DNA of 64,000 bases from the NCBI GenBank assembly GCA_004376895.1, contig SOIH01000236.1:6452-70451 (forward strand), read 5' to 3'. The stretch comes from Anaerolineales bacterium (GTDB lineage Bacteria; Chloroflexota; Anaerolineae; Anaerolineales; E44-bin32). Position 1 is the first letter of the stretch; each line of letters starts with the position of its first letter. The notes under the pieces were generated by a model that searched no databases, was not told where the DNA came from, and worked only from the letters and a program-made list of their open reading frames with translations. A program made the position numbers and the translations under genes. Of this stretch, positions 3,359 to 64,000 are shown in pieces.

Positions 3359-4186
3359 ATGACAGATAACGATCGCCCCCTAATCCTGCTAACCAATGAT
3401 GATGGCATACGTTCTCCCGCATTATGGGCGGCCGCTGAGGCGCTTTCAGAGATCGGGTTCGTCACCGTTGCGGCTCCTCGGGAGCAGTCATCGGGCGCGG
3501 GGCGCAGTATGCCTGTCACCTCGGATGGCCGACTCGCTGAAGAACAAGTTGATATACGAGGGAAGAAGTGGAAGGTCTACGCGGTTGGCGGCTCGCCTGC
3601 GCAAGCCGTGCAGCACGGCATCCTGGAGTTGATGCCACGCAAACCAGATCTTGTGGTCGCAGGTATTAACTACGGCGAGAATCTAACGACCGGCATCACC
3701 GTCTCCGGGACCGTCGGAGCCGCGCTCGAAGGGGCATCCTTCGGTGTACCCGCGCTCGCAGTGTCACTTGAGGTACCTGCGGAGTATTACCTGACACATT
3801 CAGACACAATCGATTTCCGTGTCGCAAAGTATTTCACAGCATATTTCGCCCGAGCTCTCATGGATATGCAACCCATGGCGGACGTTGATGTGTTAAAAGT
3901 GGATATTCCATCGGATGCGTCGGAGACTACCGAGTGGCGTGTGACAAGACTCTCGCGCCAAAAATATTATGTCCCGGTGGTATCGCCAAGGGCGCTGCTC
4001 GAAGATCCGGCTAATATCCAGTTCAAGATTGAGTTAGATAGGGATAAAGTGGAGACGGATTCAGACGTCTATGCGCTCCGCATTGACCGCATGGTATCTG
4101 TCACCCCATTAAGCCTCGATATAACCTCTCGCGTGAATTTTCCTGAGCTGGAAAATTTACTTAAGGCTAAGGGAGCGCAGTGTTAA
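3359..4186 (+). CDS. surE: 5'/3'-nucleotidase SurE
   Basis: N-terminus LILLTNDDGIRSPALWAAAEAL and GTVGAALEG are typical SurE. The ORF-track TTG at 3320 is actually the -35 hexamer of a promoter, so the ATG at 3359 is preferred. Confidence 0.85.
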   Translation: MTDNDRPLILLTNDDGIRSPALWAAAEALSEIGFVTVAAPREQSSGAGRSMPVTSDGRLAEEQVDIRGKKWKVYAVGGSPAQAVQHGILELMPRKPDLVVAGINYGENLTTGITVSGTVGAALEGASFGVPALAVSLEVPAEYYLTHSDTIDFRVAKYFTAYFARALMDMQPMADVDVLKVDIPSDASETTEWRVTRLSRQKYYVPVVSPRALLEDPANIQFKIELDRDKVETDSDVYALRIDRMVSVTPLSLDITSRVNFPELENLLKAKGAQC

Positions 4187-44402: not shown

Positions 44403-44433
44403 ACGGGGCGGATCACTCCGCCCCGTTTTTTTT
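44403..44433 (+). terminator. Rho-independent terminator after the FHA gene
   Basis: 10-bp stem ACGGGGCGGA / TCCGCCCCGT, loop TCAC, then TTTTTTT. Confidence 0.85.
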
Positions 44434-50389: not shown

Positions 50390-50718
50390 GGTCGCCCAAT
50401 CGCTTAGTGAGAATATGGCCGCAGCCTGCTCGGTTGCCTGTGCGCTGCTGGCTTGCGACCATAGAACAGGTCATCATGCCAAAGCGCTGCTTGGTGAAAA
50501 AAAAGTGGGACCGTCGGATGTCGCGATCGATGAGAAGAATAATCTATCCTTTCCGCTAGGCACACGTATTATCTTCCCTGACTTGTTTTCGCCGGCGAGT
50601 ATCTTTGGCGCCATTTGCAGTCCCCGGACTCCAAAGAGGGATGAATAGGAACTAGAGCAATCGATTGCGCATTGCCAACGCTGGATTGAACTTTTTGTGT
50701 GTATTTTTCAAGATTCAT
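50390..50718 (-). pseudogene. Decayed N-terminal remnant of a ClpB/Clp_N-type chaperone gene
   Basis: The ATG at 50718 gives MNLEKYTQKVQSSVGNAQSIAL, which resembles ClpB N-termini (M-N-L/F-E-K/R-F/Y-T-x-K-x-Q-x-x-x-x-x-A-Q-x-L-A). The frame then breaks after 49 codons. Other frames show weak ClpB-N-like strings (IRVPSG..., FFSPSSAL). Only about 330 nt remain before the neighbouring gene. Confidence 0.35.
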
Positions 50719-54443: not shown

Positions 54444-55364
54444 TTAGGATTCCTGCGGATTGGCAAGTTCCTCGAAGAGTTCTCTCTCGCGTGGATTAAG
54501 ATCACGCGGCAGGGTGATGTCCAGTCGTACATATAGATCGCCCCGCTTATCTTTATTTCGAAGATTGGGCAAACCGCGCCCTTTCAAGCGGAAGCTTTGA
54601 TCAGGTTGACTGCCCGATGGGATGGTCAATACGATGTTGCCGGATAGTGTGGGAACTTCGACTTCTCCACCGAGAACAGCGCTGTAAAGATCCACTTCCA
54701 CCTTTGTGTAGAGATCATCTTTCTTGCGTTTGAAGCGGGTATCGGGCTCGACGTTAATTACAAGAAACAGATCGCCAGACTTCTGTGCGCCGGCCTCGCC
54801 TAGTCCGCTTACGCGCACCTTTGTACCTGTCCGGGCGCCTGGCGGGATGGTTATCTCGATTTTTTTTCCGTTGATGGTTAATACGCGTGTTGTCCCTGTA
54901 TTGACCTCGCCGAGTGTAATCGTGACGGGCTGCTTGATATCGCGTCCGCGTCTGCGACCCTGTGTGCGATATCCCTGTTGTTGAGTGCCCATCCCACCAA
55001 AGATGGCAGAAAAGAAGTCGGAAAAGTCTCCAAAGGCATTGCCGATATCTCCAATATCAACTCGCACGCCTCCCCCTTGTCCTCCCGACATCCATTCAGA
55101 CCAATCGTAAGCCCCCCTCTTGCTACCGGTCCGTTCCCATGCTTGATAAGAAGAGCCCAATTGGTCATACTTCGTACGCTTAGTAGAGTCGCCCAATACT
55201 TCGTAAGCTTCGTTAATCTCCTTAAAGCGCTCCTCAGCTTGGTTGTCACCAGGGTTTTTGTCGGGGTGGAACTTAAGCGCGAGTTTTCGATAAACACGCT
55301 TGATTTCATCACTACTCGCAGAACGATCGACCCCTAATACTTTGTAGTAGTCCTTGTATTCCAT
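54444..55364 (-). CDS. DnaJ-class co-chaperone without zinc finger (CbpA-like)
   Basis: J domain [34 protein letters not shown]-rich region, and two C-terminal beta-domains with no CxxCxGxG repeats. Confidence 0.85.
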
Positions 55365-60729: not shown

Positions 60730-61578
60730 TCAGGAAGTTCGAGGCCGGGCTTTACCGGAGACCTCATCAAGTTCTTGTTTGACAGCATGGTAGAGATGGT
60801 CGGCTTTTAGCTCGTGCAGCGTATAGCATGGGCCGCCCAGATGATCCGCCAGACCCTGGGCCAGACCTTGGTCGAACGCGGCGTGCTCCATATTGATCAC
60901 GACCGAACGTACTCCTTGGTCGCGGAGGCGCTCAGCCACTCGATGCGCCTCCTCCTGAGGCTGCAGATCGCCCATCGAGACATTACCTGCGCCATCCGTG
61001 AGGAGGACCATTAATGGGAGTACTTCGGGGTGGGTGTTTGTCTCCTTGCGGAAGACTTCGCTTGCTAGATTCAAGCCGGCCGAAAGCGGGGTTTTTCCGC
61101 CGACTGGGATATCTGCCAGGGCGCGGTGAGCAAGATGGACGGAATTCGTCGGTGGCATCACGGTCAGGGCGCGATCTTTTTGGAAGACGATCAGCCCTAC
61201 ACGATCCCTGCGTTGGTAAGCATCTGTGATTAGAGAAAGGATGGCGCCTTTAGTTGCCGACATCCGTTCAGCGACGGCCATCGACCAGGATGCATCCACG
61301 ACGAAGAGGATAAGGTTTGGTGCGCGGCTGACACGAACCTTGCGCTGCAGATCCGAGGGGAGAATGGCGAAGGAGACGTGTTTGCGTTGTTCACTGCGCG
61401 AGCGTTGGTGTGGAGCAGCGGCGCGGATGGTCGCATCAAATGCGATATCAGCGGTCTTTTCTTTTACCGGTCTTGCCTGGATGTATCGTCCGCGTTTTTG
61501 TTCGGTTCGAGTGCGGGTCCGTCGTCCGCTCTGACGACGAGTCAGGCGATCGATGTGCCCTTCGAGTTTGCGCGGCAC
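60730..61578 (-). CDS. VWA-domain protein equivalent to the C-terminal half of Mg-chelatase subunit D (ChlD/BchD)
   Basis: GRYIQARP...DIAFDATIRAAAPHQRS, then MIDAS VVDASWSM. The listed GTG start has no good RBS, and the same frame is open a further 50 codons upstream to the A9 run in chlI. Confidence 0.8.
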   Translation of the reverse strand: MPRKLEGHIDRLTRRQSGRRTRTRTEQKRGRYIQARPVKEKTADIAFDATIRAAAPHQRSRSEQRKHVSFAILPSDLQRKVRVSRAPNLILFVVDASWSMAVAERMSATKGAILSLITDAYQRRDRVGLIVFQKDRALTVMPPTNSVHLAHRALADIPVGGKTPLSAGLNLASEVFRKETNTHPEVLPLMVLLTDGAGNVSMGDLQPQEEAHRVAERLRDQGVRSVVINMEHAAFDQGLAQGLADHLGGPCYTLHELKADHLYHAVKQELDEVSGKARPRTS

Positions 61579-61703
61579 GAAAGAACGACCAACCTTAACT
61601 TTATCGCCGCCTTCCCACCAGCGAGCATGAATGGTTTCGGGTGTGGATTGTCGAACCGGCGCAGAGGATCCCTGCTCTATTGAGGTTTCAGCATCGTCAT
61701 CGG

Positions 61704-62816
61704 CTAGGCTTGCTGGAGGTCTTTTTTTTTATCGGCAGGTTCTTCGGTGCCATCTGATGTTTCTGCGCTCTCGCCGCCACTATTGAGGTCAGACTGGATC
61801 TGCTCAATCAAGTTCTCGATATTTTCGATATTGACATCTGCTTGCTGAAAAGGTCCGCGTCGCAGACGGTGTGGGAGGGCTAATTCTGCGGCGAGCGCGA
61901 TGTCGTGCTCGTTGATATACCTGCGCCCCTCGAAAGCGGCGTGAGCACGTGCGGCTTTGAGAATCACAAGGTCTGCCCGGTGGCCGTCCACTTGAAGGGA
62001 AGATGTGAGGGCGGCGATCGATAGTAAATCGCGCTTGGTGTAGGTTACATCATTGAGTATTTTGCGCGCGGCGGCAATCTCGTTGGAGAGCTTTTCTTCC
62101 TGATCTAGCCATTGGTCGCGAAAAGCCTCTGGTTCCGCCTCAAACTCCAGATTGCGTTCCATGATAGAAACACGATCGCGCGGGTCGGGCAAACCGCGTA
62201 TCTCTACGGAGAGTGCGAATCGGTCAAGTAGCTGCGGGCGCAGGTCACCCTCTTCCGGGTTCATCGTTCCGACAAGGATGTAGCGGGCGGGGTGTGTAAA
62301 CGAGATCCCTTCACGCTCCACGAAATTCATACCCAATGCGGCGGAGTCTAAGAGGAGATCGACGACATGATCGTCAAGCAGATTTACTTCGTCGATATAT
62401 AGGAGACCTCGGTTGGCTGCGGCGAGGACGCCGGGTTCGAAATGGCGCTCACCTTCCTTAATCGCTCGTTCGATGTCGAGTGTTCCGACAACGCGGTCCT
62501 CAGTGGCCGATACGGGAAGGTCAACAAAGGACGTTTTATGTATTGCGACCGGGAGTTTCTCACCGCGAGCAACGCGCTCACGGCATTCTGTACACAGGCT
62601 TGTCGTTTGTTGAGGATCGCAATCAAATCGGCAATCTGCGACGACCTCCACTTCTGGGAGAAGTACGGCCAACGCACGTGCGGCGGTGGATTTAGCCGTG
62701 CCACGCTCGCCGCGGATCAATACGCCTCCGATGCGAGGGTTGACGGCGTTCAGAATCAGGGCACGCCGCATGCGCTCCTGTCCAACAATCGCGGTAAAGG
62801 GATAGACAACTGCCAT
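61704..62816 (-). CDS. chlI: Mg-chelatase subunit I-type AAA+ ATPase (ChlI/BchI family) with acidic C-terminal tail
   Basis: VYPFTAIVGQERMRRALILNAVNPRIGGVLIRGERGTAKS, LYIDEVNLLDDHVVD, GTMNPEEGDLRPQLLDRF. ATG 62816 (MAVVYPF) has AGGTG upstream. The tail is ...GGESAETSDGTEEPADKKKDLQQA. Confidence 0.88.
   Translation of the reverse strand: MAVVYPFTAIVGQERMRRALILNAVNPRIGGVLIRGERGTAKSTAARALAVLLPEVEVVADCRFDCDPQQTTSLCTECRERVARGEKLPVAIHKTSFVDLPVSATEDRVVGTLDIERAIKEGERHFEPGVLAAANRGLLYIDEVNLLDDHVVDLLLDSAALGMNFVEREGISFTHPARYILVGTMNPEEGDLRPQLLDRFALSVEIRGLPDPRDRVSIMERNLEFEAEPEAFRDQWLDQEEKLSNEIAAARKILNDVTYTKRDLLSIAALTSSLQVDGHRADLVILKAARAHAAFEGRRYINEHDIALAAELALPHRLRRGPFQQADVNIENIENLIEQIQSDLNSGGESAETSDGTEEPADKKKDLQQA
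61722..61730 (-). repeat. A9 homopolymer (T9 on + strand) in the last codons of chlI; candidate slippery or indel-prone site
   Basis: The minus strand reads GAT AAA AAA AAA GAC. It is directly visible at 61722-61730. Confidence 0.95.
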
Positions 62817-62934: not shown

Positions 62935-64000
62935 ATGGAGCATAATGAGGAGACCGTCGGGGAAGAAATCCTTCCGGAGAAGGAGGTTGAAGACCGGGCG
63001 GAACACCCGATGGAAGCCCTGCTTCAAGCAGAGGCATATGAACTAAAGACGCCGAAACGCGGCGAAATTAAGACAGGTACGATCGCGCGTATCACCGATT
63101 CGGACATCCTGGTAGACATTGGCGCCAAGTCAGAGGGCGTCATTCCCAGCCGAGAACTCGATCAACTCTCAGATGAGCAGCGAGCGGAAATGGTCGTTGG
63201 GGAAGAGGTGGATGTTTATATCGTCCGATCTTCCGGCCGCGACGGTTCGATGTTGCTGTCACTCTCGCGTGCGAAAGAAGAACAGGATTGGAAAGAGGTT
63301 GAAAATCTTCAAGAAACGAGCGAGATCTATGAGGGGACAATATCGGGGTACAACAAGGGCGGTCTTATTGTTAAGTTTGGACACCTTCGAGGCTTCATCC
63401 CTGCATCTCAAGTAAGCATCTCACGACGACGCCGTTCAGAAGGGGAAACGCCCGATCAGCGATGGGGCGAGATGGTCGGTGAGCCGATTGTGGCGAAGGT
63501 TATTGAAGTTGATCGACGCCGGAATCGCTTGATCCTCTCGGAGAGAGCGGCGTCGAGAGAATCGCGCGATGCGCTAAAAGAACGACTTATCACAGAACTG
63601 GAGCCAGGCGAGGAGCGCACAGGTACGGTTATCAGCCTGGCGGATTTCGGCGTGTTCGTGGATATTGGAGGCGCCGATGGATTGGTCCATATTTCGGAAT
63701 TATCTTGGAGGCGCGTTGCGCATCCGAAGGAGTTCGTGAATGTCGGTCAGGAAGTGAAAGTAAAAATCCTTGGCGTCGATCCGGATCGAAAGCGGATCAG
63801 CCTCTCGATGCGGGAGCTTGAACCAAACCCCTGGGATGAAGTCATGGAGGGTTTCCAAGAGGGGCAGCTTGTTGAGGGGACAATTACCAAACTCACGAAG
63901 TTTGGAGCATTTGCCTCTCTGGCAGGCGTGGAGGAGTTTGAGATCGAAGGCCTAATTCACATCTCGGAACTCTCTGATCAAAGAATTGAGCACCCGCGAG
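62935..64000 (+). CDS. rpsA: 30S ribosomal protein S1 (3' end outside window)
   Basis: Open frame to the window end with repeated S1 domains (GTIARITDSDILVDIGAKSEGVIPSREL; GTISGYNKGGLIVKFGHLRGFIPASQV; GTVISLADFGVFVDIGGADGLVHISEL; GTITKLTKFGAFASLAG). GGAG lies 11 nt before the ATG at 62935; the in-frame ATG at 62926 is also possible. Confidence 0.9.
   Translation, partial: MEHNEETVGEEILPEKEVEDRAEHPMEALLQAEAYELKTPKRGEIKTGTIARITDSDILVDIGAKSEGVIPSRELDQLSDEQRAEMVVGEEVDVYIVRSSGRDGSMLLSLSRAKEEQDWKEVENLQETSEIYEGTISGYNKGGLIVKFGHLRGFIPASQVSISRRRRSEGETPDQRWGEMVGEPIVAKVIEVDRRRNRLILSERAASRESRDALKERLITELEPGEERTGTVISLADFGVFVDIGGADGLVHISELSWRRVAHPKEFVNVGQEVKVKILGVDPDRKRISLSMRELEPNPWDEVMEGFQEGQLVEGTITKLTKFGAFASLAGVEEFEIEGLIHISELSDQRIEHPR

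Follow-up and report, generated by a model that had tools for sequence, protein, structure and literature searches.

The stretch of DNA analyzed here, a 64-kb window of contig SOIH01000236.1 from an uncultured Anaerolineales bacterium, carries on its minus strand two neighboring open reading frames (ORFs), the first encoding a ChlI-like AAA+ ATPase and the second a protein with a VWA domain. Judging from their sequence, both ORFs very probably represent a single frameshifted chlD gene (fs-chlD), which would give rise to two proteins from one transcription unit. The two frames meet at a run of nine adenines (A9). An earlier note on this DNA had proposed recoding at this run, and the proposal gained support from the orthologs of 80 species, in which both the run and an open shifted frame are conserved. 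We established the anatomy of the gene, the conservation of the run, the coding character of the shifted frame, and the lack of an independent start for the VWA part. All coordinates given below refer to the whole window.

Under the proposed scheme, standard decoding would terminate 15 nt past the A9 run and produce a 370-aa ChlI-like AAA+ ATPase. A slip of one nucleotide on the run would move some of the ribosomes to the -1 frame, yielding a 695-aa ChlD-like protein in which the same AAA+ module is followed by an acidic/Pro linker and a VWA/MIDAS domain. The predicted masses of the short and long products are ~41 and ~77 kDa, respectively. By analogy with the I/D (S/T) motors of Mg- and Co-chelatases, the short and long products may assemble into a hetero-oligomeric AAA+ motor, with the efficiency of the slip setting the ratio between them.

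Anatomy of the gene

The zero-frame part of the gene (61704..62816) comprises a complete ChlI-like AAA+ module and an acidic tail, forming a 370-aa short subunit that ends in ...PADKKKDLQQA. In the ORF list, this frame begins at a TTG (62909). The true start of both the short and the long product is likely the ATG at 62816, which has AGGTG just 5′ of it and coincides with the onset of homology to ChlI. At the junction, the minus strand reads ...GAA CCT GCC GAT AAA AAA AAA GAC CTC CAG CAA GCC TAG. The A9 run (61722..61730) thus appears as AAA AAA AAA in the zero frame and holds an in-phase A_AAA_AAA heptamer. The zero-frame TAG that ends the short product (61704..61706) is located 15 nt past the run, and a TAA in the -1 frame (61729..61731) abuts its 5′ edge; the -1 frame is open from the run onward only. 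The positions that the earlier note had assigned to the run and to both stop codons were found unchanged in the sequence. In the sub-clade to which the window belongs, the codon preceding the run has T as its last base throughout (GAT, GCT, ACT, ATT, TCT or AGT), which places a -1-frame TAA directly against the run. The corresponding layout (NNT AAA AAA AAA) was also present in 14 related loci.

Past the run, the -1 frame consists of 332 open codons with a stop at 60732..60730. This part of the gene (60730..61728) encodes an acidic/Pro-rich linker, a WWEGGDKV segment (61597..61620), a basic segment, and the VWA domain with its MIDAS motif DASWS (DxSxS; 61282..61296). The WWEGGDKV motif, which is kept as protein in the shifted frame, lies upstream of the GTG (61576..61578) that ORF finders take as the start of the VWA protein and that is most likely an internal Val codon. 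A conceptual -1 fusion starting from the ATG at 62816 is 695 aa long, with ...PADKKK followed directly by RPPASL... at the junction and ...EEPADKKKRPPASLADDDAETSIEQ as the predicted junction peptide. Given the arrangement of the frames, the VWA part would be reached only by a -1 shift or by one extra A in the mRNA.

Domain content of the fusion

Pfam detected Mg_chelatase, AAA_lid_2, and VWA in the conceptual fusion, with a match to VWA_2 as well. Compared with the NCBIfam model TIGR02442 ("putative cobaltochelatase"), the fusion covered model positions 1-640 of 641 with a score of 770.8 bits. This end-to-end alignment and the length of 695 aa are in agreement with the ChlD-like fusion of roughly 690 aa that the earlier note had envisaged. 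The fusion likewise covered positions 1-606 of 608 of the BchD-ChlD model TIGR02031. The N-terminal part alone, i.e. the ChlI-like short form that the same note had expected from standard decoding, aligned with positions 1-334 of 337 of the BchI-ChlI model TIGR02030. The equivalog cut-offs for BchI and BchD were missed (433 vs 467 bits and 435 vs 500 bits, respectively). At the level of structures, residues 3-335 matched Synechocystis ChlI (6L8D; E = 1.6e-104) and residues 501-643 matched the integrin-I domain of BchD (2X31; E = 2.3e-19). Naturally fused homologs were also found in metagenomes (P0007, P0028, P0042, P0049, and P0082), and these carry KKK at the same point. As the fusion matches full-length models and structures, the ORF pair is read here as one chlD-type gene with a -1 frame change at the end of the ChlI-like module.

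The motifs expected for an AAA+ and a VWA protein were inspected in the window and its relatives (see below). The Walker B motif LLYIDEVN is present in the window and conserved among the relatives, and the MIDAS motif [VLA]VDASWSM occurred in all 81 loci. The Walker A motif of the window is GERGTAKS (62688..62711), with Ala at the position where ChlI structures have Gly (GDRGTGKS in 6L8D). This variant was found in 65 of the 81 loci, and ten loci had GERGTGKS. The replacement of Gly by Ala may alter ATP hydrolysis by one or both forms of the protein.

Conservation of the run and of the frame layout

One genome per GTDB species was scanned for relatives, with WWEGGDKV serving as the search pattern. 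The scan yielded 555 relatives, and the best 80 of them (L001-L080) were analyzed. All 80 are Anaerolineales or Chloroflexota metagenome-assembled genomes (MAGs) with 64-95% aa identity in the VWA part. We used tblastn to assign the frames and a script to locate the junctions; counts out of 81 loci include the window.

A junction run was present in all 80 relatives, comprising A7 (six loci), A8 (two), A9 (43), A10 (28), and A11 (one); in 72 of the 80 loci, it was thus at least nine bases long. Taking ChlI as the zero frame, the VWA frame was -1 in 66 loci, +1 in eight, and in-frame in six. All 66 loci with the -1 layout had an in-phase A_AAA_AAN heptamer and a zero-frame stop 1-23 nt past the run, and 18 loci carried the dnaX heptamer in phase (GAA AAA AAA AAG). 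The six A7 loci consist of exact in-phase heptamers (CGA AAA AAA GTC), and the phase is permissive in the two A8 loci. In every locus, both non-VWA frames close no more than 47 nt from the run. Because of this quick closure, any ribosome outside the VWA frame would yield the ChlI-like short form.

Long homopolymers were almost confined to this site. The A9 run is the sole homopolymer of at least nine bases in the window, and of the 73 A/T runs of at least nine bases in the 642,791 nt of the 80 related loci, 72 were located at the chlD junction. The exception, an A9 at position 2446 of L064, is situated about 1.5 kb upstream of the junction and outside the chlD ORF. Just 48% of the Lys codons in the window are AAA, which indicates that it is the nucleotide sequence of the run that is maintained. 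Shorter homopolymers in the window include an A8 on the minus strand (54860-54867), a T8 (44426-44433), and another A8 (50497-50504). The first of these is in frame within a DnaJ/CbpA-like gene and showed no sign of an alternative-frame extension; the other two lie outside long ORFs according to the ORF lists.

Four close relatives resembled the window in run length and frame. Two MAGs with 92-95% aa identity (L001 and L002) and two metagenome contigs with 93-94% nt identity (L082 and L083) all have A9 and a layout identical to that of the window. The two contigs came from a DNA-pattern scan of metagenomes, which returned eight loci; these two were the true relatives, both with A9, and the other six were chance matches. 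The set of 80 also contains an Anaerolinea thermophila MAG (L031; A10, -1 layout), which ties the gene of the window directly to the published fs-chlD set.

These data bear on a trivial alternative, namely a sequencing or assembly error that hides an A10 run and hence an ordinary fused chlD gene. Errors are frequent in homopolymers, fused homologs exist in metagenomes, and an in-frame gene with the run in place was seen in six of the 80 relatives. However, A9 together with the -1 layout was repeated in four independent assemblies (L001, L002, L082, and L083), the -1 layout recurred in 66 of the 80 species, which come from many different studies and sequencing platforms, and conservation extends to the short zero-frame tail with its stop. 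An assembly error is therefore exceedingly improbable. Two ORFs in differing frames are also the usual mark of a disrupted gene, and the pair might represent a decaying pseudogene or a ChlI-only remnant left by an inactivating frameshift. Against this, an intact VWA frame was found in each of the 80 species along with a conserved linker motif, the MIDAS motif DASWS occurs in 81 of 81 loci, and the frame change is always located at the same poly-A run. Random stops or indels were not found in the VWA part of the 80 relatives. Conservation of MIDAS and Walker B and the intact VWA ORF in all species imply that the gene is under purifying selection, and we regard its inactivation as extremely unlikely.

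Some relatives depart from the -1 layout. A monophyletic group of six species (L047, L050, L052, L065, L077, and L080) has A10 (at about position 3946 of the loci), the VWA frame at +1, and a zero-frame tail of 47 nt; Illumina and Nanopore assemblies concur on this layout. According to these sequences, a simple -1 slip would not suffice for the long product of this clade; either one A would have to be deleted from the RNA, or the ribosome would have to move by +1/-2. In the six in-frame species (L011, L017, L025, L028, L057, and L064), a run of A9-A11 is kept and stops lie 2-32 nt away in both other frames. Each of these species is nested among relatives with the -1 layout. One of them, the Nanopore MAG L057, has an extra stop 114 nt upstream of the run. 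This in-frame case and the +1 singletons L033 and L074, all three from Nanopore MAGs, may be homopolymer miscalls.

Variation of this kind could also reflect DNA-level phase variation, in which slipped-strand mispairing toggles the A-run between cells that produce ChlI only and cells that produce ChlD. Such switching would account for run lengths from A7 to A11 across species and for in-frame and +1 singletons that are nested among -1 relatives, often one A apart (e.g. L028 with A11 vs A10, and L074 and L033 with A9 vs A10). If the fused gene were the ON state of such a switch, however, one would not expect the consensus assemblies of 74 of the 80 species to be out of frame and so many of them (66) to share the -1 layout. 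Moreover, an I/D motor requires both products simultaneously, and efficient slippage occurs in reporter assays without any change of the DNA (PMC3711429). Phase variation is thus very unlikely as an explanation of the layout.

Translation of the VWA part

As a rival to recoding, the two ORFs might be separate genes. Translation of the VWA protein would in that case begin at the GTG at 61578 or depend on coupling or reinitiation past the chlI stop. "VWA domain-containing proteins" of ~280-320 aa are indeed what ORF finders and public annotations call, and RefSeq treats such pairs as two genes (PMC3711429). In the window, the 49 codons ahead of this GTG (KKRPPASL...KVGRSF) contain no ATG, GTG, or TTG. 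The earlier note had described this stretch as open and free of starts, as it is, although with a count of 50 codons, which is one too many. It had also remarked on the lack of a convincing Shine-Dalgarno (SD) sequence at the GTG, and none was found in the 18 nt 5′ of it (AAGGTTGGTCGTTCTTTC). The GTG lies 126 nt past the chlI stop, which is too far for coupling.

The comparison with the relatives points in the same direction. In the alignment of orthologs, which the earlier note had suggested, the A-run and the open shifted frame were kept, and the spacer proved to be conserved as protein. Across all 81 loci, the shifted-frame linker is conserved along the pattern ...EP..Q....A.WWEGG.KVK.G..F.PR..., with WW[ED]GG in nearly all of the aligned tails, and neither a conserved start codon nor a conserved ribosome-binding site for the VWA ORF was found among them. 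The earliest possible start codon is scattered between 1 and 132 codons past the run among relatives. In four of them (L003, L013, L072, and L079), it is located past codon 120, just 5′ of the MIDAS motif, and most of the conserved linker would be lost upon independent initiation. Taken together, the lack of an SD sequence and of a conserved start, the conserved linker, and the distant chlI stop do not support independent initiation, and an arrangement as two separate genes is very improbable.

The division of the gene by annotation has consequences beyond the window. Gene callers and public records split it into a "ChlI" and a truncated "VWA domain-containing protein". The closest public homologs are nearly all deposited as a "VWA domain-containing protein" of 280-320 aa or as "Mg-chelatase subunit ChlD", with arbitrary starts. 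It follows from these arbitrary starts that the family is systematically mis-annotated, and that the long product and the conserved linker are missing from databases.

Mechanism of the proposed slippage

A single fs-chlD gene could be decoded by two routes, which yield the same protein. We lean slightly towards transcriptional slippage, in which RNA polymerase would insert an extra A, as the predominant route within this lineage. The alternative, or a co-contributor, is tandem -1 slippage of the ribosome on the in-phase A_AAA_AAA heptamer.

Elements that would stimulate ribosomal frameshifting were looked for on both sides of the run. Downstream, the window segment folded no better than shuffled sequences (z = +0.56), and across the 70 nt past the run in the 81 loci, comparison with shuffles gave a mean z of +0.03, vs -0.44 for control coding segments. 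An Rfam scan of 61400-62000 returned only a chance miRNA match (E = 0.67). Upstream, an SD-like motif was present in only 31 of the 81 loci and absent in the window, i.e. no conserved 5′ stimulator was detected. The lack of a 3′ structure and of a conserved 5′ SD-like element, the long runs, and the variable frame layouts are what makes us lean to transcriptional slippage. The pattern fits what would be expected from stimulator-free slippage on a homopolymer.

The shorter runs speak against this choice of mechanism, since ribosomal frameshifting is the better fit for the A7 and A8 loci with their exact in-phase heptamers. A sub-clade with A7 only (L012, L014, L015, L019, L022, and L039) has the sequence CGA/CCA AAA AAA GTC AGC GCC... 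at the junction. In some of its members, the GUCAGC directly 3′ of the site can pair with a GCUGA ~60 nt downstream (L015, z = -2.7; L022, z = -2.1). This pairing may be a candidate for a clade-specific stimulator of ribosomal frameshifting.

Neighborhood and possible chelatase partner

Beyond the junction, the window was examined for a chelatase partner. It contains no ORF of at least 1000 aa, the size of CobN/ChlH, and no chelatase large subunit was found in the 4-kb flanks of the 80 relatives. As no cobN or chlH is in view, the chelatase role of the I/D pair is putative here.

These two negative results count against a frameshifted chlD that supplies a chelatase motor, and three further points have to be set beside them. 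The score of the fusion against TIGR02442 (770.8 bits) is ~9 bits below the curated cut-off of 779.45. Some of the +1 and in-frame singletons come from Nanopore MAGs, in which homopolymer miscalls are common. Finally, the occurrence and the efficiency of slippage in this organism are themselves inferred from sequence.

A reading that combines mechanism and neighborhood is possible, though rather doubtful: stimulator-free slippage on poly-A, mainly by RNA polymerase or else by sliding of the ribosome, would make run length a dial for the ChlI:ChlD ratio, and the resulting I/D motor would work without an H/N subunit in a function other than tetrapyrrole metalation. On this reading, -1, +1, and in-frame layouts would all be tolerated in evolution as long as the run and the quick stops in the non-VWA frames stay.

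Upstream of the gene, a divergent gene on the plus strand (~62936-64000) encodes a protein that resembles ribosomal protein S1 in its repeated S1 RNA-binding domains; the gene runs off the end of the window. This S1-domain neighbor is kept in 56 of the 81 loci and is followed, in 34, by a ClpC-like gene. Among the other genes in the flanks of the relatives were those encoding a histidine kinase (25 loci) and an exonuclease-like protein (23 loci).

Comparison with known systems

In their domain plans, the long and short forms correspond to the canonical pairs BchD/ChlD with BchI/ChlI and CobT with CobS. The canonical chelatases differ in having separate I and D genes, whereas the two predicted products of the window share an identical AAA+ module. 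They also differ in that no gene for an H/N subunit is in view at the window locus. Phase-variable contingency loci resemble the present case in having a homopolymer within a coding region whose length varies between lineages. In contrast to such loci, the out-of-frame state is conserved here, and both products are presumably needed together.

The closest parallels in other genes are offered by dnaX. In Escherichia coli, programmed -1 ribosomal frameshifting at A_AAA_AAG in dnaX makes the shorter product and needs an SD-like element on the 5′ side and a hairpin on the 3′ side. In Thermus thermophilus, dnaX undergoes transcriptional slippage at an A9 run. As in dnaX, slippage at an A-rich site would let the gene of the window supply an AAA+ machine with two of its subunits, and a bare A9 run serves as the site, as in Thermus. 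The earlier note had called the arrangement dnaX-style, which holds for the slippery A-run and the two products. The likeness to E. coli ends there, since it is the long product that would require the slip and the search for stimulators gave none: of the features of stimulated -1 frameshifting of the dnaX type, the heptamer is present in the window, no 3′ hairpin was detected, and the 5′ SD-like element is absent. As for chelatases, Antonov reportedly proposed in 2020 (MBE 37:2268) that the small and medium subunits are both products of chlD; Anaerolineaceae are reportedly among the carriers listed there.

The fs-chlD family itself has been described in several studies. Antonov et al. (NAR 2013; PMC3711429) grouped 23 genes that have a -1 shift into a "magnesium chelatase" cluster; the genes belong to six genera of bacteria and archaea, among them Herpetosiphon of the Chloroflexi. 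In E. coli reporters, cassettes from such genes gave 63% shifting with A11, 40% with A9 (A_AAA_AAA_AA), and 10% with A7 (PMC3711429). A later review gave A_AAA_AAR as the site of the family and noted strong purifying selection on it (Atkins et al. 2016; PMC5009743). Within the Anaerolineae, fs-chlD was reported for Brevefilum fermentans, Anaerolinea thermophila UNI-1, Ornatilinea, Longilinea, and Levilinea (Kuznetsov et al. 2022; PMC9227772). According to the same study, Anaerolineae with fs-chlD may lack the pathways for B12 and chlorophyll as well as cobN/chlH, shifts of the +1 type, of which cases are mentioned, are rarer than those of the -1 type, and a downstream stimulatory RNA structure is usual in the family (PMC9227772).

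The gene of the window shares with this family (i) a ChlI-like ORF with an overlapping VWA ORF in the -1 frame; (ii) a poly-A or A_AAA_AAR site under purifying selection; (iii) two predicted chelatase-type subunits per gene; (iv) annotation as two genes; and (v) a reported occurrence in Chloroflexi. It differs in three respects. The usual 3′ structure was not detected in the window or in the Anaerolineales set, the Anaerolineales set also has +1 and in-frame layouts that retain the run, and no cobN or chlH is located near the gene of the window. A 3′ structure is not obligatory for membership in the family, because the published poly-A cassettes scale with run length.

The feature is therefore an instance of the already published poly-A recoding of fs-chlD and nothing new in kind. 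It provides a clean and deeply conserved case of one gene predicted to supply two AAA+ machine subunits, and the 80 species form a natural series of run lengths and layouts that can be used to separate transcriptional from translational slippage. The residual interest lies in a stimulator-free, frame-flexible tract across Anaerolineales and in what a ChlI/ChlD motor would do in anaerobic Chloroflexi that seem to have no large subunit, a question that was raised already for the published fs-chlD genes (PMC9227772).

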